From positions 9,045-73,044 of IMG/VR virus record IMGVR_UViG_3300025154_000073: a DNA stretch of 64,000 nucleotides. One strand, 5' to 3'. The notes beneath the pieces are model-generated. The model made no database searches, had not been told where the DNA came from, and saw only the letters and a program-made list of their open reading frames with translations. Positions within the stretch are counted from its first letter, which is position 1; every line of letters starts with the position of its first letter. The position numbers were made by a program, and so were the translations under genes. Positions 5,963 to 42,445 of the stretch are shown piece by piece. This stretch comes from a virus.

Positions 5963-7711
5963 GTGAAGGTCAATATGCAAATAAAACAACCGCCAATATA
6001 TGACGTAAGTCATTGGGAAGAAATCCCAGATTTTACAAAGGTCTCACCACGACCCGTTCTATTTATTACAAAAGCAACAGAAGGAATAACATATAAAGAT
6101 GATAAATTTATTCGTTTCTTTGGTGGCATGAAACAAATAGGTGTGTTGCGTGGTGCGTATCATTTCTTCCGGCAGGCATATAATTCGGTTGCTCAGGCGA
6201 AGTTTTTTCTTGGCTTTGTGGGTCAATTTATCACTTATAAAGACTTGCTGATTTTGGATGTTGAAGAGGGTGGAGAGACGGCTCCCATGCTTCAAGACTG
6301 GCTGGAGTATGTTCGTACTGAGCGACCTAATAATCAAATCATTATATACAGTCGCAAGAACATCCTTGATAGTATTTTGATGACATCTACTCAAAGAGCT
6401 TATTTCAAAACGTTCTCTATTTGGACAGCTGGTTATCCATATTTTCCAGACCAATACAGCACACCGCCCGCAAGTTATATTCCAGATCAGACACGTTTCG
6501 GGCCTGTTGTGCTGTGGCAATATTCAGATAAGGGGATTGTTTCAGGAATTCAAGGCTACGTGGATGTCAATTGGATTGACCCCGTTTTTCTTGAAAAGAT
6601 GAACGGTTTACCTGACCCTCCTCCTCCCCCCACCGACGACACTATTTTATCCGAGCGCGAATACTTCCTTGGCGCAATTGAAAAAAGATGCGAAACTATC
6701 ACAACACATGGAAAGGCAATATATAACCTAACCGAAATACTAACCGAAAAAGTAGAAAAGTTCTTTATCAGTCCACAATTGCAATCCCGCCAATATGTAC
6801 CTAAGTTTTTAGAGGATTACGATCTGCACTTTGCAATAAATTGTGACGGGTGGACAACGCCTCCATTAATCCCCACTGGCTATAACGCTTCAGAGGGTCA
6901 TCCTTATGGAATTACAGGAAATGAAGAAACAGTTTATGTAAGCAAGGATAACACTTTCTCTCTTACCCGCCCCGCCTCTATCTGGAACGCCTTTTCGTTT
7001 CAAAACCGCCTGATAAAAGATGGCGTAATTCCTGTCATAAATAAGAGTGTTGATGACATCCGTGCCCGCACAGCAATTGGGTATACACAAGATCAATCAA
7101 AGGTCTATCTAATCACAGTAGATGGTGGAGACCAGTACTCAAAAGAGGGCTTGAACTTCCAAGAGACCGCCGCTATACTACTTAAATTAGGGTGCTATCA
7201 GGCATTTATGCTGGATGGCGGTGGCAGCACGGCAAAGGTGGTTGAAGATCACGGAGTAAAGGTTATTGGATTGACAAGTGGCGAGGATTTGGTTTTGCAG
7301 TATGGCGCACTTTTGCGCCGTGTATTGAACATTTTTGGATTACAAATGAAAGACGGGACGGTCGAACCGCCCACAGGAGAAACCATGACTCATAAAGTTT
7401 TAGTGGCAGTAAAACCGAGGATTGAACATAGCATGTATGCCAATAGCGCAAGCGTCAATCTGGCGGTTGGCACAGAGTTTGAAAGCACCATATCTTTTAT
7501 CGTAAATGACCCGTCCCGCGTTGACAACGGCGTGACGTTCGTTCAGATAATCGGCGGAACGTATAACCAGTATTGGGTTCCCCTGATTTATAAATCAGTT
7601 GAATATGTCAAGGCTTTGGATGTGGTCGTTCCTCCTCCAACAACCGTCTGGCCCGACAAATTGACAGCCCACTACGGAACCGAAACAAAGGACTACTTCC
7701 CCAATGCTTGA
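5963..7711 (+). CDS. Modular endolysin: GH25 muramidase plus phosphodiester-glycosidase (NAGPA-like) domain
   Basis: GH25 motifs DVSHWE, KATEG, GAYHFF, LDVE, LWQYS; poly-Pro linker; NAGPA-like RARTAIG, ITVDG, MLDGGGST. Confidence 0.8.
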   Translation: MKVNMQIKQPPIYDVSHWEEIPDFTKVSPRPVLFITKATEGITYKDDKFIRFFGGMKQIGVLRGAYHFFRQAYNSVAQAKFFLGFVGQFITYKDLLILDVEEGGETAPMLQDWLEYVRTERPNNQIIIYSRKNILDSILMTSTQRAYFKTFSIWTAGYPYFPDQYSTPPASYIPDQTRFGPVVLWQYSDKGIVSGIQGYVDVNWIDPVFLEKMNGLPDPPPPPTDDTILSEREYFLGAIEKRCETITTHGKAIYNLTEILTEKVEKFFISPQLQSRQYVPKFLEDYDLHFAINCDGWTTPPLIPTGYNASEGHPYGITGNEETVYVSKDNTFSLTRPASIWNAFSFQNRLIKDGVIPVINKSVDDIRARTAIGYTQDQSKVYLITVDGGDQYSKEGLNFQETAAILLKLGCYQAFMLDGGGSTAKVVEDHGVKVIGLTSGEDLVLQYGALLRRVLNIFGLQMKDGTVEPPTGETMTHKVLVAVKPRIEHSMYANSASVNLAVGTEFESTISFIVNDPSRVDNGVTFVQIIGGTYNQYWVPLIYKSVEYVKALDVVVPPPTTVWPDKLTAHYGTETKDYFPNA

Positions 7712-9016: not shown

Positions 9017-9065
9017 CTTCTCTAACCGGTCTTTTTTGAGTCTTTACGTCATGTTCATAAAGTAA

Positions 9066-22505: not shown

Positions 22506-22800
22506 TTGTCAACCTCCTGAGAATGCACGGTGTTTTCTCTGCCATCTTTCGGACGGCTTCAACCACGTCTTGTTCTGTTGCTTCAAGATAGTCCAATTCC
22601 AGGATTTTGCATAAAGTGACCATGAGGGACTCGTGAGCGTTGAACAACTCCTCTTTTGTCGGTTTGTCTTCCGATTCGTGAGGAGTTTTAGGACAGTACC
22701 ACTCTTTAGTCCAGGGGTCTTGCACAAGATCGCCGTCGCAAATACGGCAATGCTTTTCTGAGCCGAACGGGTCGGCGTTTTGGTCATAATTAACTCTCAT
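22429..22800 (-). CDS. Hypothetical zinc-ribbon protein
   Basis: GGAG RBS; CRICDG...WYCP. Confidence 0.5.
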   Translation of the reverse strand: MRVNYDQNADPFGSEKHCRICDGDLVQDPWTKEWYCPKTPHESEDKPTKEELFNAHESLMVTLCKILELDYLEATEQDVVEAVRKMAEKTPCILRRLTNDLKNSYRKNRQRHSLHRVIYNTWQ

Positions 22801-23506
22801 AATCAGTCTCCTTTTTGAAATTTAGCGGTCTGTCTATTTTATTTTCAATTATATATTTATCATACGCAATTGCAGCATCAATTTCGTAAACATACGACCC
22901 CACATAACAGCGATTAGATTTTCCCTTTAACCTAAATCTACAATACCACCTATTATGTTTTTCTGAGAAGAATATTCCGAAGAATTTTGATGACGCACTA
23001 GAAACTTTCTTTCCGAATCGGGGGTTGTTTTTCCACCCTTGCGCCAACTTCATTTTTTCTCTTGAGGCGTCTGCTATTTCTTCTCTATTTCTATTTGCTT
23101 CTGATATTTTATTGATGGCCTCTTTTGTGTGGTGTTTTCCATACATGGGATTTTTTTCTTTAGCCTGTGAACAAGACATTTTTGCCTTAGTTTCTTCTGT
23201 GCATCTCCCATGCGCTCCGGCATCTTTTTTGTTGTATCCAAATAATTTGTTTTTAGTGTGGTAAAAATTAATCCAATAATCCTCTCTGTCAACAAGCATT
23301 TCTACTGAACATACGTCAATAACTTCAAACAAGAAATTATATTCTCCGTATTTGTTCCACGCGTTTTGTAGGTGCGCGTTGTGTGCCGTGCCGTTTTTCA
23401 ATAAAAAAATATGGTCTTTCCATCTATGCTTTATGTCAATAGATTGACCTATGTAGTTTTTTCCGCTTATTTTATTCATAATACGATAGATTCCGCATAT
23501 AGGCAT
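22790..23506 (-). CDS. GIY-YIG homing endonuclease with NUMOD3 repeats and AP2-like C-terminus
   Basis: GIYRI...YIGQS; NPMYGKHHT; SSKFFGI...IDAAIAYD...PLNF. Confidence 0.85.
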   Translation of the reverse strand: MPICGIYRIMNKISGKNYIGQSIDIKHRWKDHIFLLKNGTAHNAHLQNAWNKYGEYNFLFEVIDVCSVEMLVDREDYWINFYHTKNKLFGYNKKDAGAHGRCTEETKAKMSCSQAKEKNPMYGKHHTKEAINKISEANRNREEIADASREKMKLAQGWKNNPRFGKKVSSASSKFFGIFFSEKHNRWYCRFRLKGKSNRCYVGSYVYEIDAAIAYDKYIIENKIDRPLNFKKETDYES

Positions 23507-23522
23507 TGTATATACTTCAAAC

Positions 23523-23639
23523 AAACCACCGCCAATCTGCATTCCGAACTTGTCACAGTTGCAGGAGCGCGGCAGACGGGCGGTGGTTTATCTCGGAATA
23601 AAAAATCTCCTGTGAAACTGTGACGAATTGATTATACCA
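23523..23639 (-). promoter_or_regulatory. Extended -10 promoter and structured leader of the GIY-YIG gene
   Basis: TGGTATAAT; hairpin arms 23523-23533 / 23579-23589; three loop segments complementary to upstream leader segments. Confidence 0.65.
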
Positions 23640-23671: not shown

Positions 23672-24025
23672 TCATCGCCCCTCCATCTCTTCAAGCAGGG
23701 AGACAGCTTGCAAATCCATGACTAACTGTTCGTCATAGTCGGGCTGGTTGTCCTGACAAAAAACTTTCCAAACGCCCGTTTTACCCAGACCGTGAGTGTC
23801 GGAAAATAGGGATTCTGGCGGAGGACAGAAAGCATAACCTTTTTCGAGGAAACAGAAGTCAATTTCCGCACCGAACTCGGTCTCCACAGGGTAGGCATGA
23901 CCTACGCACGCGCCGTGTTCGAGTTTGACCATTTGCTCGTGTTCAATGCACCAGACGAACTCTGGAGCGTCTCGCCTCACGGAAGATACAAGGCGGTGTA
24001 CGTGCGTTCCTAGTGAAGTTTTCAT
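23672..24025 (-). CDS. Hypothetical protein
   Basis: AGGAG RBS before MKTSLG; Cys/His pattern. Confidence 0.5.
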   Translation of the reverse strand: MKTSLGTHVHRLVSSVRRDAPEFVWCIEHEQMVKLEHGACVGHAYPVETEFGAEIDFCFLEKGYAFCPPPESLFSDTHGLGKTGVWKVFCQDNQPDYDEQLVMDLQAVSLLEEMEGR

Positions 24026-24042
24026 AATGTTCTCCTTTTCTC

Positions 24043-24861
24043 CTATTTTGTACATTCAAAGACGATCTCGGCATTTTTCCCTGAGTGTAATCTCCATGTT
24101 TTTCCATCAAACGATGGCACAAATCCTCGCTTCCATAGATCAACACAAGGCTGAAATTCATAATTGTTATCCCAAATATAAAATAAACTTCCGATGTAAG
24201 CCCCCACAGAACCCCCCACAGAATCTATCACAGAATTCCCCACAGAATTCCACACAGAATCTCTCACAGAATCTATCACAGAATTCCCCACAGAATTCCC
24301 CACAGAATTCCCCACAGAATCCCACACAGAATTCCACACAGAATTCCCCACAGACCCCCCCACAGAACCCCCCACAGAATCTCTCACAGAATTCCACACA
24401 GAATCCCACACAGAATTCCACACAGAATTCCACACAGAATTCCCCACAGAATCTCTCACAGAATCTCTCACAGAATCCCACTGCTTTAATAATTCAATGT
24501 CTTTTTTTGTGGGCTTTGATTTATTGGCTAGTGGATTGATTGGATTTTGCGCTTCCTTGATATTAATTAATGGATATACCTCCTTTTTCCACTTCTTAAG
24601 GGAGCGCAGAGCCTCTGCTGAGTGTGAAGCAGACCACCATGACGGAATATCTTCTTCATCAACATTCAATGTCCAATCGCAATCTGGATATAAATATCCT
24701 TTATCTGGTGTGATCTCCACCTTTACGGAATTTCTAGATGCTTCTTTCAGTTCTGGGTACTTAGACAGATATCTAGAATACAGCGTGTCGTGAGAGGAAA
24801 TGCCGCGCTCCCAAATTACTTGGTGACTTCTTGTTACAATACATGAAAAATCTTTACACAT
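24043..24861 (-). CDS. Tetrapeptide-repeat protein (23 x [WRGI][NDG]SV), paralog 2
   Basis: MCKDFSCIV...SHD...VEITP N-terminus; repeat tract; conserved C-terminus. Confidence 0.75.
   Translation of the reverse strand: MCKDFSCIVTRSHQVIWERGISSHDTLYSRYLSKYPELKEASRNSVKVEITPDKGYLYPDCDWTLNVDEEDIPSWWSASHSAEALRSLKKWKKEVYPLINIKEAQNPINPLANKSKPTKKDIELLKQWDSVRDSVRDSVGNSVWNSVWNSVWDSVWNSVRDSVGGSVGGSVGNSVWNSVWDSVGNSVGNSVGNSVIDSVRDSVWNSVGNSVIDSVGGSVGAYIGSLFYIWDNNYEFQPCVDLWKRGFVPSFDGKTWRLHSGKNAEIVFECTK
24205..24480. repeat. 12-bp tandem repeat, 23 units
   Basis: Same unit family as 21434-21628. Confidence 0.95.
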
Positions 24862-25117
24862 TGTTTTTCTCCTTTTGTTTTTCTAATTGTTTTTCTGCCA
24901 ATTCTGCGAGAATAAGAATTCTGTCGTAAATCTCTCGCCAAGTTCCTTCGATATTATTTGTCATGCGCCTAGCTTCACTCTCTCCAACAACGTCTATGAG
25001 CCTTTCAAGAGCATCTTCGGCTGAGTTCCGCCAGTATCGCGCCATTGGTGGGATTTCAAAAGAAAATCTACTTCTTACGTGCCTCTGTCCGTGAAAGTGA
25101 CTCATTTCGTACTCCAC
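24854..25117 (-). CDS. Hypothetical protein
   Basis: Coupled small ORF. Confidence 0.45.
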   Translation of the reverse strand: MEYEMSHFHGQRHVRSRFSFEIPPMARYWRNSAEDALERLIDVVGESEARRMTNNIEGTWREIYDRILILAELAEKQLEKQKEKNNV

Positions 25118-25573
25118 AACTTACGGATTGACTTAGGAAGGCGAATGTCCGCGTGTGGCGGATTCTTCTCGCCTTTGCCATTGTTCATTACTCGGACGTT
25201 GTTCAACTTGTCCTCAACTGTTTTCGGCATGATTTTTAACAATGCCGCTGTTCCAGATCGTTTTAACGTCCAAGTCATAGTTTTCAGCCTCTCGGTTTCG
25301 GTTTTGACATTCGTACTAGGTAGCGGGAGTCGCGCTCGAAGCGACCTCAATGCTGAGTTTATGAAACTCGCTCTGACCCATGCCAGCCTCCCGCAGTGTT
25401 TATTTCTTTCTGCCTTCGCTTAGGTCATAACTCCTAAGCCTTGAAAAACACTTGTGGGCGGAGCATTGTCTTTTTGCTCACGGGCTTTGACTTCGCCTGC
25501 TTCATTCAACATAGTTGAATTGCGCCCACATTTTTAATATATCACGATTGCGCTCTCTTAGGATTAAATCTTC

Positions 25574-25882
25574 CTAAGTGTTTGACAATATGGATTTGGC
25601 TTTTAATAGAATTCTTGCAAAGTGCCTGTGGGAGGCGTATCTTTCTGGATTTGCTATAATCCAGGAGTTTTCTCCATCCATTTCATCAAATACTTCCTTT
25701 ATAAATTCTGTCAATGCGGCGATGACGGTGGCACTATCGTCTTCCTTCTCGAATGTTGTTGTTTTCCATTCCTGCTTGCGCCCTATCGGGGCTTCGCGTC
25801 CACCGACGGGGCATTGGTTGGTTTCAAAGTGATGTAAACCGTATTCGCCGCCACAGTTTTTACATTTATCGTATGTGTTCAT
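25574..25882 (-). CDS. Hypothetical protein
   Basis: AGGAG RBS; CKNCG...HH...QCP. Confidence 0.55.
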   Translation of the reverse strand: MNTYDKCKNCGGEYGLHHFETNQCPVGGREAPIGRKQEWKTTTFEKEDDSATVIAALTEFIKEVFDEMDGENSWIIANPERYASHRHFARILLKAKSILSNT

Positions 25883-25961
25883 TTTAGCTCCTATTGTTTT
25901 ACGTTAGTTTGTACGTGAGCTGCGACACAACCTTAATCATAAGATTTGCTTAAGTGTTGCG

Positions 25962-26178
25962 TTAAGCCTTGTTTCCTTTACTAGAATTCTCGGACGGTTC
26001 ATCCCCACGTGTGTGGGGAATACCATGGCAGGAATATAGTCACTGTCTCTTGACACGGTTCATCCCCACGTGTGTGGGGAATACTTTTACAGTACGGATA
26101 AAGACCATCCCTATGACCTTTGCTTTTGTGAAATTCCGAATAGTCTTTATCTTGTAAACACTTTTTGCATTTTTTCAT
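25962..26178 (-). pseudogene. Disrupted HNH-like endonuclease gene (N-terminal 26085-26178 and C-terminal 25962-25994 remnants)
   Basis: GGAG RBS then MKKCKKCLQDKDYSEFHKSKGHRDGLYPYCK runs into the repeat; after the other repeat the frame reads SENSSKGNKA-stop. Confidence 0.65.
25995..26084 (-). CRISPR. Type I-E-like mini-array: two identical 29-bp repeats and one 32-bp spacer
   Basis: Repeat GTATTCCCCACACACGTGGGGATGAACCG (minus) at 25995-26023 and 26056-26084; spacer 26024-26055; 61-bp period. Confidence 0.9.
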
Positions 26179-26200
26179 TATCTATTTGCTCCAATAGAAA

Positions 26201-26310
26201 ACTCCACAAGTCAAAGCCGTTGATTGTTCAGGTCTACGGGGACGAGTGGAGTAATTCTTATTGTAACATAACGACTTTTCCATAGACCTGAACAGTTGGA
26301 GTATATCATA
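26201..26310 (-). promoter_or_regulatory. Extended -10 promoter and structured leader upstream of HNH remnant / mini-array
   Basis: TGATATACT; 12-nt complementary pair 26283-26294 / 26225-26236; hairpin arms 26201-26207 / 26246-26252. Confidence 0.6.
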
Positions 26311-26359
26311 CTTTGAACAAAAGGGACGACGACAGATGCAACAGAACCTAATCTAACTC

Positions 26360-27025
26360 TCATTTTCTCTTTTCGTCTTTCCATTTGATAACTGGCTTAT
26401 TGTTGATTTTTACATCGTAGCTCTTTAGATATGGCACATCTACAACGTGCCAGTTTTTTGTCATTCCAGGATGATAAATCAAGGACTGATCTATCGGAAT
26501 GTGTAGCATGTAGTCATCCTTGATAGCTTCGCCCTCATCGTGGAAGGTTTTTAGCATGTGGTCAAGGTTCGAGCGTTGAATAACGCTGATTAATGTGGTT
26601 TGCTTAAAGAGTACCGCATCAAGCTCCCCACTGATCTTGCCATTAAAGTTGTGAGCGAGTCCGCACAGGATGATCGTGTTATTGTGATATGGATGGTAGA
26701 TTGTCTGCAAAATTCCTGTAAACGTTTTCATATCTTTTCGATTGTCTGGGTCTGCAAGGAATTTCAGTTCATCCAAAATAATCAGGCTGTTTTTAATTTT
26801 TGACAACTCAATCAGTGTGCTAATTGAAAGAACGCCAGGGATATTAACGGACAGTCTGAATCCGACAATGTTTGTCTCTGGGGCTTGCTTTCTGACAATA
26901 TCAATGATGTTGAATAGCAATCCTGATTTTCCTGTATTTTTGTCGCCCACTACGCCAATGACGCGAAGGCTTTTATCTTTAAGGAACTCCTCAAGATCGT
27001 GAATATTTTCGTTAGGTGTGTACAT
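26360..27025 (-). CDS. P-loop ATPase of unknown function
   Basis: Walker A GDKNTGKS, Walker B LIILDE; AAGGAG RBS before ATG 27025. Confidence 0.7.
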   Translation of the reverse strand: MYTPNENIHDLEEFLKDKSLRVIGVVGDKNTGKSGLLFNIIDIVRKQAPETNIVGFRLSVNIPGVLSISTLIELSKIKNSLIILDELKFLADPDNRKDMKTFTGILQTIYHPYHNNTIILCGLAHNFNGKISGELDAVLFKQTTLISVIQRSNLDHMLKTFHDEGEAIKDDYMLHIPIDQSLIYHPGMTKNWHVVDVPYLKSYDVKINNKPVIKWKDEKRK

Positions 27026-27080
27026 GGTATCTCCTTTTTCTGGCGGGTGATTGGGTTGCCAGAATACACGGTGTTTTCTT

Positions 27081-27338
27081 TTACGAGTTGGCGTCCCAAC
27101 ATTCCTTGTGGACAATGCGCTCAAATTTGTTACGGTACGCCCATTTTGCGGTATCTAGTTCTTCACGTGTGAAGTTGCGATGACAATACATACACTCATC
27201 ATCAAGGTACATGGAAATTGCCAACTCAAGCATGGCGGGGCGATTCTCATCTGTGAGTTCAACGACTGCAACGGATTTGCCACCGCCTAAATCAAACTCT
27301 TGTACGTCCTCTTGTTTGGGTAAATTAAAGACATTCAT
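27081..27338 (-). CDS. Hypothetical protein
   Basis: AAGGAG RBS; CMYC...HKEC. Confidence 0.5.
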   Translation of the reverse strand: MNVFNLPKQEDVQEFDLGGGKSVAVVELTDENRPAMLELAISMYLDDECMYCHRNFTREELDTAKWAYRNKFERIVHKECWDANS

Positions 27339-28004: not shown

Positions 28005-28811
28005 TTACTTTGTGCGGGCGGAGTTCCTTAATTCCTTGACGAATTCTCCTGCGTTGTAATTGTAGTAAGCTGAGAATGCGCCTTCGCCCTCTGATCTAAG
28101 TACACGGTATCCGTGAGATTTCAGGTTTTTGAAGGTGTCAAGGTCAACGCGGGCGGGGAAGTAGATTCGGATTCGGTTCTCGCCTGCTCGCCATTGTATT
28201 TTGACGCCGTTGATTTCTTCGTCCTTGTCTGGGATAGCTTGTTTCTTCTCAACCAGCGCGGCGCGTTTGGTCGCTGTGCGGATATTGGCAGACAAGTTAG
28301 TCAATTGAAATGGGGTGATAGGGTGCGGTTCCCATCTATATTCTGGCTTATAGTTGCGAATTGTGATTTTGTCCGACTCGGACAGTTCGCACAAGTCAAG
28401 GCTGGCGGGGTTTTTTAAGTACTTGGCGTGAGCGGCATTAATCGCCTTGTATCGTTTTTGTAGTACTAATAAACCGTCAAGTTTGGATTCCAGTTTTTCA
28501 ACGGCTTCAGGGTCATCGCTAAAAATAGCGTTGTTTGCCTCCATAGACGCGGCGCGGCTTTTCAGTTCTTCGGCGCGGAGATGCAATTCGTACCCTTTGC
28601 GGTGTTTGCTTTCAATCCGTGCGCGATAATTTCGGTCTCTGCCCTCGGAGTAATGTCCCACGAGGATCGGTTGACCAAACGGTATACAATCTGCCATTTT
28701 ATGAGCCTGATTCCAATTCGATTCGCTTTCTGTTTCTGCTTTTTGTGCGGCTTTTACAAGCCTTTCATAGCGGGCGGTGCGTTTTGCTTCGTATTCTTCA
28801 ATTGTGTACAT
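28005..28811 (-). CDS. DUF3560 family protein
   Basis: IPFGQPILVGHYSEGRDR and IFSDDPEAVEKL motifs. Confidence 0.8.
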   Translation of the reverse strand: MYTIEEYEAKRTARYERLVKAAQKAETESESNWNQAHKMADCIPFGQPILVGHYSEGRDRNYRARIESKHRKGYELHLRAEELKSRAASMEANNAIFSDDPEAVEKLESKLDGLLVLQKRYKAINAAHAKYLKNPASLDLCELSESDKITIRNYKPEYRWEPHPITPFQLTNLSANIRTATKRAALVEKKQAIPDKDEEINGVKIQWRAGENRIRIYFPARVDLDTFKNLKSHGYRVLRSEGEGAFSAYYNYNAGEFVKELRNSARTK

Positions 28812-29358
28812 ATTAATCCTCTGCAAGAGCAACCAGCGCGGCGAATTGCAATTCGTATTCTGGGCGGTCTGTTGATAATTCTATGACGCGCTCGGCTGTA
28901 GGTGTGTGGGCGGATGATTGTCCGATTGCCCATTCAAAAAAATATGGGTAGTTTTTATACATTTTGTAATCTCCTTTGATTTGAGAAAACACGGTGTATT
29001 TGTATCTTACACGGTCAAGATGAGAGAGGGGTTAAAATGTTGCCGGTGTTAAGCGGATGAAGGATAACCGCTTCGTGTAGAGGCGCGCCGTTGCCTCTAC
29101 AATATTGTGGAAAAACTAACCCGCTATCAATCCACAAAGAAAAACGACGCACAACCTTCGCGCCACAATGTTTACAGTGATATTCCATGATTTTTACTCC
29201 TCTTCCTCTTTATCGGTCGTAGTGGTTTATAGGGTTGGCTGGTGTGTAAAACGCGCACTGTCTACAATCGCGCATTGCCAGAGCCAAGAGACAGCAAGCG
29301 CAATTAATACGCCTTTCTGCCAGAGTCCATATGTGGGGGATGATTACAGATTGCATGG

Positions 29359-38824: not shown

Positions 38825-40390
38825 CTGCCGAATCTTAGCAGTAGAAAACCTCTTAGTCAGGATGAGTGGAAGAAACTCTACCTGATCTCAAAAGAACTGG
38901 AAAGCAGGGGGGAGAAAGTACCTGAACAATCCATTGAACAATTCAAGGATAAAAAACGAAAAAAGTGGCCTGTTGACCCCAACGGGTATTTTGTGCGTAA
39001 TGACGGAAAGTCGTACAGCCCCTCAGAGAACCACAAGAAATTTGTGGAAAGTACCGCCAGATTTTCAGCCCTGTACGGCCCGAGAGGTTGTGGAAAATCC
39101 GGTGGTGGAGGACAGAAGACTCTTAGAAAAATAATGCAGGGGGAAGATGGCGCGGTGATGAACCCCGACATGGAGAATTTTAAGCTATCAACGTGGCCTG
39201 AGTTGAAGGCGTGGATACCCTGGAAGATGGTAGTCCCTACACAGAAACACAGGTCGAGACCTGAGTGGGAACCGACCAAACCGTTTACAATGGTGTTTAT
39301 AAATGGGGCAAGAGTCTACTGCAAGGGACTCAAAGACCCCGACTCTGCGCGCGGCCCTAATATCAACTACCTTTGGTATGACGAAGCGGGGCGCGATAAA
39401 ACAGGACAGGGTTGGAAGATTGCCGTGTCCTCTGTCCGTGTTGGAAACAATCCTCAAGCGTTTGCAACTTTCACGCCAAAGACTTCCGAACACTGGACGA
39501 CAAAGTTTTTTGTTAAGCAAGAAATCCCCGAAGATGTCAAACAACAGTTTGCGGAAGCGTTGGGAGATGATAAAATTCTCATAGAGTCTTTTCACGCAAC
39601 GCGCGAGGACAACAAGGCGAATCTTGACCCCGCTTTCTATGCCTCCATCCTTGCAAGTAATCCTTCTGGATGGCTCAAGGCTCAAGAGTACGATGGAGAA
39701 GTTGCAGATGAAGGCGGTCAGATTGGTTATCGAAGTTGGTTTGATGGCAGAATCATCACTACGTTACCAACCAGAATTATAAAAAAGATACGCGCATGGG
39801 ATACTGCCGCCAGTGAGAAGAAGGTCGCCAAAGACGACCCAGACGAATCGGTTGGTTCATTACTTATAAAATTTCTTCCAAAGGACAACCCTGAATGGAT
39901 GGAACTCTACGGACACTTATTGCAAGAGGGGCAGGAAAAACAACCACATTTTATTTTAGAAAATCAAGTCGCTGGTTTTTGGGCGGCGGAAAGACTATTT
40001 GAAGTCATCAAGAATACTGCTAGATATGATGGAGTCTATGTTCCCGTTTACATTGACCAAGACCCAGGCGGGGCAGGCAAGAACCAGGTCGCTCTACTTG
40101 CCGCGTCTTTCAAGGACTCGAAGAACCCAGAACTCCATGCTCATCAGGTTCTTGAAGTGGATGTTAGAAAAGTTGGAGATAGAGTCCTCGCCGCGAACAA
40201 TCACTGGTTTGGTGCGGCGTCAGAAGGTAGGATGTGGTTGATGAAAAGCAGTTGGAACGACGGATTCTTGGGTCAACTTGATGGATTTACGATGATTGGG
40301 CATGACGACAAAATCACCTCGGTCACTTCTGGAATGTATGTTTTGAACCCCGCGAAAAAATGGGGCAAACTCCCATTTGTCACATTATGA
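38825..40390 (+). CDS. terL: Terminase large subunit (frame open from 38825; track start 38993)
   Basis: Walker A GPRGCGKS, Walker B LWYDEAG, nuclease RAWDTA and HDDKI. Confidence 0.9.
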   Translation: MPNLSSRKPLSQDEWKKLYLISKELESRGEKVPEQSIEQFKDKKRKKWPVDPNGYFVRNDGKSYSPSENHKKFVESTARFSALYGPRGCGKSGGGGQKTLRKIMQGEDGAVMNPDMENFKLSTWPELKAWIPWKMVVPTQKHRSRPEWEPTKPFTMVFINGARVYCKGLKDPDSARGPNINYLWYDEAGRDKTGQGWKIAVSSVRVGNNPQAFATFTPKTSEHWTTKFFVKQEIPEDVKQQFAEALGDDKILIESFHATREDNKANLDPAFYASILASNPSGWLKAQEYDGEVADEGGQIGYRSWFDGRIITTLPTRIIKKIRAWDTAASEKKVAKDDPDESVGSLLIKFLPKDNPEWMELYGHLLQEGQEKQPHFILENQVAGFWAAERLFEVIKNTARYDGVYVPVYIDQDPGGAGKNQVALLAASFKDSKNPELHAHQVLEVDVRKVGDRVLAANNHWFGAASEGRMWLMKSSWNDGFLGQLDGFTMIGHDDKITSVTSGMYVLNPAKKWGKLPFVTL

Positions 40391-40504: not shown

Positions 40505-42445
40505 ATGCCAACTAATACAGGCAATGTTTCAACGCTAGACATTATCAACGCTCCGCAACCCACGAGAGAAGCGGGTCAGCGCAGTATGCGGGTATCGGAT
40601 GCGTACTTTACAAGGATGATTCCAAGGTGGTCACAACCCTCAATTCTTACGCCTGGTCAATGGCGTGCGTGGGTGGCGAGTCAACCCGTAGCTGTGACCT
40701 GTAAAGACACCATGATCTCCAACATTGCCGACCTTGACTGGAAGATAACTCCTCGCAAGAGCGACATGCGCGATGAACTAAAGGGGACAATAGAGTATTA
40801 TGAAAAGTTTCTTAGGAACGGCGGGTATTCGGGTTTGGATTGGATTGGATTTCTTGAATGGTTCATCTCCGACCTAAACGACCTTCCTTTTGGAACAGGA
40901 TTTGAACTTGGCAGAAAGGGAGATACAGAGAATGGCAGAGTAATGTGGCTCGAACCCTTAGACGGCGGAACGCTCTACCCCACCAACAATAAAGACACTC
41001 CAATCATTCAATACTACAATGGGCATTATGCTTCGTTTCCCAAACACGCCATAGCAAGAGCCTACATGAGTCCACGTCCTGAAATAGAAAGAAAAGGGTG
41101 GGGTGTCGCTCCACCAGAAAAAGTATTCCTAGCTATGGAAATGCTGGCGAGAGGGGATAGGTATTATGCCAATCTTCTTCTCGACATCCCGCCCGCTGGA
41201 GTCTTTGATCTCGGAGATATTACATGGGAGGATGCGAATACATGGATTGAATCTTTCAGAACCTTTACACAGGGTGGAACAGCGGAGGGATTCAAGATTC
41301 CTGTTCTTGCAGAGCATACAGGGAAAGTACAGTTCATCCCGTTAGGCAAAGCCCCCAATGACATCATGTATGACAGGATTACCCTAAAATACGCGGCTCT
41401 TGTAACCGCAGCATACGGCATGACATTGGGAGACATTGGACTTGCGGGGTCGTCTGCTTCTGGCGAAACTCTGGCTGGCTCGATTCGTGGCGAACAGAAA
41501 ACCAACCGAACAGGTAAGGCTAGAAACAAAGGAAAGATTAAGTACTTCATTGAAGGGATAATTCCATCTGTTTTACAGTTTGATTTTATTGACACGGACG
41601 GAGAAAGACTCTCCATGCTCGGACGCGCCAGGCTTGCAAGTGCAACCGCCTTCAATATGAACGTTCAAAATGGAACAATCTCTCCCGAAGAATCAAGACT
41701 GCAACAGATTCAAGACGGACTATTTACGATCTCCATGCCAGAGAAGCCGCCGAAAGATGCCAAGCCTACTTTGTTAGGCAAAGCCCCAGAACGCCCCGCA
41801 TCCGTAGGCTCTCCCCAACCCCCCTCTTTAGGTGGAGATGGCGAGATGAAGTCTCTAGTCGGTCTGACAATTGAAAAAGGACGCTCGTTCAATGCCAGAA
41901 TTGGCAAGTTAGTAAAACGAATCTGTGAAGACATTGCGCCCATACTCACAGAATCGTCTCAAAGTGTTAATGCGGATGATCTATATTTACTCCGCTCGGC
42001 TGTGGACGATTCCATTTTTGGAGAAGAGGACGTATTCAATATTGCGGAAATCCTCAAGGCAATTTGGGTACAGGATAATTGGGTCTCGGTCAAAGACGTA
42101 GACCTGCCTTTTGAACTAAAGGCTTTGTTCACTCAGAAATATATTTGGGAACTGACTGACGAACAGATTGACAAGATTGACTTCGTTCCTTTCGCAGAGG
42201 AACTAAAACACCGTGTTTCCTCGGAGATAAAAAACTTCATTGGAAAGTCGGCTGTCTCGATGTTGAAAGACCAAATCATAAATGACGCATTTGACAATGG
42301 CGATGGCACAAGTTACGATAATATAGTGAATGCTATACGAAGTCGCATAGTTGAGAACTTTGGCGAATTTTCTTCAACCTGTGTTGGGTTGGAGGCAGAA
42401 AAAATACTAGACGAAATAAGGAAAAACATAAATGAAAACAGTTAA
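40505..42445 (+). CDS. Portal protein with C-terminal extension
   Basis: Follows TerL; LEPLDGGTLYP, GWGVAPPE, ISPEESR motifs. Confidence 0.8.
   Translation: MPTNTGNVSTLDIINAPQPTREAGQRSMRVSDAYFTRMIPRWSQPSILTPGQWRAWVASQPVAVTCKDTMISNIADLDWKITPRKSDMRDELKGTIEYYEKFLRNGGYSGLDWIGFLEWFISDLNDLPFGTGFELGRKGDTENGRVMWLEPLDGGTLYPTNNKDTPIIQYYNGHYASFPKHAIARAYMSPRPEIERKGWGVAPPEKVFLAMEMLARGDRYYANLLLDIPPAGVFDLGDITWEDANTWIESFRTFTQGGTAEGFKIPVLAEHTGKVQFIPLGKAPNDIMYDRITLKYAALVTAAYGMTLGDIGLAGSSASGETLAGSIRGEQKTNRTGKARNKGKIKYFIEGIIPSVLQFDFIDTDGERLSMLGRARLASATAFNMNVQNGTISPEESRLQQIQDGLFTISMPEKPPKDAKPTLLGKAPERPASVGSPQPPSLGGDGEMKSLVGLTIEKGRSFNARIGKLVKRICEDIAPILTESSQSVNADDLYLLRSAVDDSIFGEEDVFNIAEILKAIWVQDNWVSVKDVDLPFELKALFTQKYIWELTDEQIDKIDFVPFAEELKHRVSSEIKNFIGKSAVSMLKDQIINDAFDNGDGTSYDNIVNAIRSRIVENFGEFSSTCVGLEAEKILDEIRKNINENS

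Follow-up and report, generated by a model that had tools for sequence, protein, structure and literature searches.

The window analyzed here is a 64,000-nucleotide (nt) stretch of viral DNA corresponding to positions 9045 to 73044 of the 73,044-nt IMG/VR record IMGVR_UViG_3300025154_000073, a linear record with an estimated completeness of 81%. Its genes are those of a tailed phage and include a terminase large subunit (window positions 38993-40390), a portal protein (40505-42445), and an endolysin (5963-7711); no tyrosine integrase was found in the phage record. Related phages of about 73 kb exist and are seen as proteins.

The locus of interest lies on the minus strand, where its upstream neighbor is an ATPase-like gene (26360-27124). 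Between the two is an intergenic region (26179-26359) that would be the only "leader" available to the array described below. An open reading frame (ORF) begins with the ATG at 26178, about 10 nt after a GGAG, and its first 31 codons (MKKCKKCLQDKDYSEFHKSKGHRDGLYPYCK; 26178-26086) form the N-terminal remnant of a gene. A single extra base, an A at 26085, separates codon 31 from a 29-nt type I-E CRISPR repeat (26084-26056), which is followed by a 32-nt spacer, S2 (26055-26024), the sole complete guide of the unit, and by a second repeat (26023-25995) that is identical to the first and lies 61 nt from it. Directly after repeat 2 come the 10 codons SENSSKGNKA and a TAA stop (25994-25962), the C-terminal remnant. 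A preliminary description of this DNA had the N terminus fused directly to the repeat; the junction is indeed flush, except for the one base that intervenes at 26085.

The repeat occurs exactly twice in the window when up to 3 mismatches are allowed, two matches were recovered in none of 100 shuffled sequences, and a further copy, even a degenerate one, with a score of at least 19/29 is absent from the 73,044-nt record. S2 is present in a single copy in both the window and the whole record, and its length fits the range of 32 to 33 nt of type I-E spacers. The preliminary reading of a type I-E repeat, a 32-nt spacer, and a second repeat is therefore borne out by the sequence itself, by the shuffles, and by the identical, cse1-linked arrays of cellular genomes considered below. 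The ORF that starts at 26178 encodes 59 amino acids (P0054) and terminates inside repeat 2, at 25999, so the two pieces of the gene are not joined in frame through the array.

Several other features surround the locus. A 15-nt inverted repeat on the minus strand (26225-26239 and 26280-26294), with 93% complementarity, a 40-nt loop, and no T-run, lies in the intergenic region upstream of the remnant ORF; Rfam models at gathering thresholds had no matches in the window. At a distance of 2.4 kb from the broken gene is a free-standing homing endonuclease gene (22790-23542, minus strand; PHROG 314, E = 9e-34) that also matches GIY-YIG-type families, showing that stand-alone genes of this kind are usual in this part of the phage. 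A 272-amino-acid ORF (24043-24861, minus strand) overlaps a plus-strand ORF (23925-24539) and contains a long tract of four-residue units of the form [WRGI][NDG]SV, encoded by 12-nt repeats; its match to a tape-measure PHROG family is weak (E = 4e-5). A DUF3560 protein (28005-28832, minus strand; Pfam E = 2e-34) has a weaker match to a primase-family PHROG, which together mark the region as one of replication or early genes.

Both flanks of the repeat-spacer-repeat unit resemble parts of HNH-type proteins. The 31-residue N terminus was matched by tblastn in 577 phage records, with a best identity of 58% over all 31 residues and with annotations of endonuclease VII or HNH, and by phmmer in 315 proteins at an E value of ≤0.001 among 1.84 billion representatives. 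These homologues continue with YCKxC, whereas the phage remnant stops at YCK, such that the zinc ribbon is cut inside its second (and last) Cys-x-x-Cys knuckle. Judged from its sequence, the left flank is the truncated N terminus of a zinc-ribbon HNH/EndoVII-type homing endonuclease; the GGAG and the tblastn and phmmer homologues agree with the earlier call of a ribosome binding site followed by a zinc-binding, HNH-type start.

The C-terminal 10-mer was compared with 148 proteins that had been picked solely by their likeness to the N terminus. It matches 8 of these 148, and in 7 of the 8 the match falls within 30 residues of the C terminus, at the HNH end motif (for example, SENCSKGN at residues 333 to 340 of the 347 in P0099 and SENYRKGNK at residues 392 to 400 of the 404 in P0102); in the eighth, P0126, it is in the middle of the protein. 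Translations of S2 in four frames gave no more than chance-level matches, of 4 to 8 residues, to the same 148 proteins. A six-frame search of the 73,044-nt record located the motif EN..KG.[KR] at one place, immediately following repeat 2. By the 10 codons that constitute the evidence for it, the right flank matches the HNH motif found at the C terminus of this group of proteins. The earlier identification of SENSSKGNKA plus stop as an HNH C-terminal end agrees with these positions and with the uniqueness of the motif, and the proposal that the flanks align to one HNH gene is upheld in that both ends match the same group of proteins.

What is missing is the middle of the gene. The families of the catalytic His-Me finger core, PF01844 and PF02945, have no match in the record at an E value of ≤10, and Pfam recognizes nothing in either the 31- or the 59-amino-acid product. 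The 32 to 33 nt beside each repeat encode conserved motifs of the HNH family, DGLYPYCK on the left and ENSSKGNK on the right, and neither junction contains a foreign partial spacer or a partial repeat. We are highly confident that the unit is a genuine I-E mini-array of the host type and that the sequences on its two sides are the ends of a single broken HNH-type gene. The remnant ORF also shares 16 identical nt with a conserved site located about 1.3 kb from host arrays; at an E value of 0.06, this identity was judged to be due to chance.

The repeat itself provides information about the host. The exact 29-mer is present in 31 stretches of cellular genomes in a collection containing one genome per species: 16 are titled Chloroflexi, Chloroflexia, Anaerolineales, Anaerolineaceae, or Anaerolinea; 3 more (Brevefilum twice and Villigracilaceae) are presumably Anaerolineae; and 12 belong to other phyla. 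Cse1/Cas8e (PF09481, over cutoff) is encoded about 5 to 6 kb from the array in all 5 genomes examined, and 5 of another 10 genomes, which are incomplete, also have a Cse1 gene (PF09481). In its predicted fold (-12.8 kcal/mol), the repeat forms a stem of 7 bp and a loop of 4 nt and leaves an 8-nt 3' part, AUGAACCG, which, by comparison with the E. coli handle, we take to be the crRNA 5' handle. Among the 619 host spacers associated with this repeat at the 31 loci, 381 are 32 nt long and 147 are 33 nt long.

One spacer from an Anaerolineales array (L019) matches the phage at 36724-36755 (plus strand), with 27 of 32 positions identical, 24 of them contiguous. All five mismatches fall within spacer positions 1 to 8, and GGG occupies the place of the protospacer-adjacent motif (PAM). 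The pattern looks like that of an escape-type target or of the target in a diverged relative, and with a GGG triplet and a mismatched seed the match is uninformative about the PAM. Repeat identity, together with this array spacer match, likely links the uncultured phage to Anaerolineales-type hosts. In the explanation that we favor, the phage is tailed, looks virulent, and infects a host of the Anaerolineales type (Chloroflexota) living in groundwater. The 73,044-nt record, 81% complete, contains no match to the Cse1 or Cas6e family, the two families searched; the unit would thus rely on Cas proteins supplied by the host.

The structure is not an artifact of assembly. A 5,680-nt Logan contig from run X2, which is possibly the source sample, covers 25000-27200 with zero differences, and a 321-nt Logan contig from a run of another study (X7) covers 25923-26243, also with zero differences; these Logan contigs of two studies have no break or loose end at the flank stretches S1 and S3 defined below. 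A 2,909-nt JGI contig from another data set (L036) has the identical order of N terminus, repeat, S2, repeat, and C terminus, and it differs from the window (99.2% identity) by five single-nucleotide polymorphisms (SNPs) and by a 17-nt indel, a deletion in the next gene, indicating that it derives from a second phage genotype. In all, six contigs, drawn from JGI, Logan, and ENA, contain the 59-amino-acid ORF. The stretch is held, in whole or in part, by 16 runs belonging to 8 groundwater, soil, and sediment studies; four of these runs were compared in detail. Two of the runs leave parts of the locus uncovered (25988-26094 in X9 and 25943-26490 in X10) and are uninformative about the junctions. 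One X7 record (record 14; 35 nt, 88% identity), whose flanks differ on both sides, was set aside as another gene with a similar start. The deletion in the second genotype (window 25659-25675; about position 1873 of the JGI contig) shifts the frame of the 102-amino-acid gene just downstream of the mini-array and may be either a population polymorphism or the mark of a broken copy.

The same comparisons bear on the possibility that the join was created by assemblers that passed from phage into host-array sequence and returned by way of spacers identical to phage DNA. Such a path is conceivable given that the Logan assemblies use words of 31 nt, shorter than a spacer, that the X9 and X10 contigs break near the repeats, and that in X10 31-mers confined to the repeat have a depth of 6 to 22. 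The same join is nevertheless present in the IMG/VR record, in the second-genotype JGI contig, in Logan contigs of two studies, and in ENA, and a protein collection that includes these assemblies contains zero proteins from an intact allele. The junctions, which the preliminary description had proposed to confirm, are thus bridged in independent assemblies, and an explanation by chimeric assembly is extremely unlikely.

A second form of the locus occurs on one ENA contig of 1,251 nt. Its 68-amino-acid product, P0055, has the identical 31 residues, the repeat in the same frame, a different spacer of 33 nt, the repeat again, and another tail, and this tail corresponds to neither S2 nor S3. The peptides encoded by its spacer and tail are not encoded anywhere in the phage record. 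P0055 may represent either a phage variant with other array content or an assembler crossing from the phage into a host array by way of S1; on both readings, there has been more than one encounter between the left junction and arrays of the host type. The form points to ongoing exchange with host arrays and implies a history more complex than one event.

The arrangement of the flanks suggests how the unit may have arisen. The 33 nt that precede repeat 1 (26117-26085, minus strand; 32 nt if the start is at 26116) constitute a putative protospacer, S1, and the 33 nt of the C-terminal remnant (25994-25962) contain a second, S3; S1 occurs once in the record. As the preliminary description had observed, AAG lies immediately 5' of the 33 nt preceding repeat 1, at 26120-26118, and is a candidate I-E PAM for a 33-nt S1, whereas a 32-nt S1 would be preceded by AGG. 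The chance of AAG at an offset of either -32 or -33 is about 1 in 32, making the PAM support weak. At S3, the position of the PAM is now occupied by CCG, the end of the repeat.

In the model that best accommodates these features, a host array carried S1 (from the 5' end of the gene), S2, and S3 (from the 3' end), in this order and orientation, and homologous exchange within S1 and S3 during infection, whether by double crossover or by gene conversion, would have swapped the middle of the gene for repeat, S2, and repeat. S1 would then be the left crossover zone and S3 the right one. Exchange through spacers would account for the completeness of both repeats, for phage-gene sequence lying flush with the repeat ends, and for the AAG 5' of S1. 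We put at slightly above one-half the probability that a host-derived I-E repeat-spacer-repeat replaced the whole catalytic core of a free-standing zinc-ribbon HNH homing endonuclease gene through exchange at S1 and S3, yielding a unit for an S2 crRNA. The double crossover proposed in the preliminary description is retained as the best-fitting inference, not as a demonstrated event, with about an even chance of being correct: the flush junctions, the gene-like flanks, and the AAG speak for it, and the failure to find a donor array and an intact allele speaks against it. Homology of 32 to 34 nt is very short for two coordinated crossovers. Retention of the PAM of S1, which would leave the recombinant open to attack by an S1 guide, also counts against the model, and the absence of S2 and S3 after the second repeat of P0055 is not explained by a single event.

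Searches for the two predicted partners of such an exchange, a host array with S1, S2, and S3 as consecutive spacers and an intact HNH allele in relatives, returned neither in the collections searched. As host spacers, S1, S2, and S3 are absent among the 619 spacers of the 31 loci; no donor array is present in 5 whole genomes, S2 was found in 0 of 401 genomes (≤3 mismatches), S1 was found in 0 of 151 genomes, and S3 was searched for in the fetched host loci and in IMG/VR only. A 27-mer of S1 had one match in JGI metagenome contigs, which is the same phage. There were no exact matches in IMG/VR to a 34-mer containing S1, to S2, or to S3, and a search of IMG/VR for the repeat likewise returned none. 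For the intact allele, no protein of 105 to 2,000 amino acids contained three five-residue words from residues 1 to 41 of P0054, and there were zero exact DNA matches outside this phage in IMG/VR and JGI metagenome contigs. A 254-amino-acid neighbor protein, used alone and in a 21-sequence alignment, led to no confirmed locus in IMG/VR, and it has no counterpart in GenBank phages or in the 401 genomes of the class of one host genome, G001. These negatives, for array and allele alike, weigh little, because the collections hold one genome per species or were searched for exact matches only, and the strain-level arrays of the true host are absent from them.

Two other origins for the unit must be weighed against exchange through S1 and S3. 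In one, array DNA was captured by a different route, either by one homologous crossover combined with an illegitimate join or by the insertion of an array fragment through nonhomologous end joining with deletion of the core, in which case the flush junctions would be partly coincidental. In favor of such a route are the lack of an S1- or S3-bearing host array in the collections searched and the shortness of the recognizable gene in the right flank, 33 nt. Against it, both repeats are complete, both adjoining 32-nt stretches encode conserved motifs of the HNH family, and a random break in the 61-nt repeat-spacer period would reach a repeat boundary only about once in 61 times on each side. We consider a capture of this kind unlikely, if still the more credible of the two.

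The remaining origin, in which the phage possessed a solitary, host-like repeat and the host Cas1-Cas2 later inserted spacers to produce either repeat-S2-repeat or P0055, we hold to be improbable. It would explain why P0055 has the same left junction and another spacer, as independent acquisitions would give, and the passages compared describe solitary repeats in phages (PMC10651486) and stand-alone repeats with spacer turnover in the mini-arrays of archaeal viruses (PMC6858448). Yet the 276 nt upstream have no similarity to host leaders beyond matches of 12 to 16 nt that are at the level of chance, and phage mini-arrays are thought, in the passages compared, to lack adaptation-competent leaders (PMC7099407). 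Growth in place also calls for an unexplained event that positioned a repeat exactly between the two parts of one gene and, since the sequence after the second repeat in P0055 is not S3, for no fewer than two insertions. Replacement of the gene core by exchange through S1 and S3 remains our preferred reading.

If the unit is expressed in a host whose I-E Cas proteins match it, Cas6e would process transcripts reading through from the remnant gene and release one mature S2 crRNA. The preliminary description had proposed that the mini-array is placed under the gene's own promoter. The scan for sigma-70-like sites called no promoter of this type upstream of the ATG, and none of the runs holding the stretch is an RNA run. 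The phage's own S3 site would have lost its PAM, the repeat end standing in its place. The S2 guide would most likely act against competing relatives or simply soak up Cascade. In principle, S2 might instead direct Cascade to the promoter of the host cas genes and shut immunity down, as in the phage I-E Cracr arrays described in a preprint (10.1101/2024.10.29.618823). The best ungapped match of S2 in five cas loci, with 22 of 32 positions, is situated 153 nt upstream of a cse1 match in one genome (G003), and a score of 22 was reached by just 2 of 300 shuffles. That site, however, is mismatched at PAM-proximal positions 2 to 4 and flanked by the triplet CTA, the other 10 regions upstream of cse1 score 16 to 20 of 32, which is background, and the Cracr spacers described in the preprint are 21 to 24 nt long with degenerate repeats, as opposed to the 32 nt and the perfect repeats here. 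Such a regulatory role is very improbable. The G003 site (L044 5825-5856; contig C17, 13324-13355) belongs to an Anaerolineae-type genome and includes a 10-nt run of identity.

A further possibility concerns the source of the spacers. S1, S2, and S3 could be neighboring spacers acquired from the same HNH gene by primed adaptation, in which case the crossover would have made a host memory into a phage weapon; we regard this as speculative and rather doubtful. If true, the recombinant would lack both the S2 target and the PAM of S3 and would make a guide against siblings with an intact gene, from S2 and possibly from S3. It would also offer a general mechanism for published mini-array spacers that match the neighboring gene of close relatives and not of the carrier.

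Faure et al. in 2019 reportedly described virus-borne mini-CRISPR arrays. [quoted passage not shown] The present unit resembles those described there in having one spacer between two complete, host-identical repeats on a virus in which cas genes were not found, and in that S2 has no match elsewhere in the carrier phage. It differs from them in that it lies inside a recognizable broken gene, both ends of which abut the repeats, an arrangement informative about its origin, and in that an exact search of IMG/VR found no target of S2 in a related virus. The passages compared do not name Anaerolineales-type Chloroflexota with type I-E systems as a host group of mini-arrays. In searches of openly available full texts, no account turned up of a mini-array with the two ends of a single phage gene on either side. 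The origin question is directly testable in the host arrays and intact alleles of the same groundwater samples.

Varble et al. in 2019, according to a review, are said to have reported that CRISPR-Cas loci are moved by transducing particles in staphylococci. As in that case, insofar as the review portrays it, short homology between spacer and phage would let phage and array DNA recombine, and the feature expected of recombination between spacer and protospacer is found here: on either side, a complete repeat directly adjoins phage sequence, and the two flanking sequences are colinear segments of a single gene. Unlike that case as portrayed, a viable phage lineage here keeps a two-repeat piece of an array in place of a gene core, for which two exchanges are needed. 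The unit also has counterparts among phage-borne decoys. In common with Racr, as presented in the passages compared (PMC10651486), it is a phage-borne copy of a host repeat that host Cas proteins are predicted to bind, but it comprises two perfect repeats and a full-length spacer instead of a solitary repeat. Like the Cracr arrays of the preprint (10.1101/2024.10.29.618823), it is a phage-borne I-E repeat-spacer unit without cas genes. Unlike the Cracr spacers described there, which pair with the cas promoter, S2 has no seed-matched promoter site at the 11 loci compared.

The phage unit belongs to the known class of phage mini-arrays, and the evidence on its origin is unusually clear. It is a natural scar that fits the capture of host array DNA by recombination. 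Cases of mini-arrays usually lack two readable junctions; here the structure was recovered from two or more phage genotypes and from the samples of several studies. It stands out among mini-arrays in that its two junctions are readable within a single gene and in having a second form.
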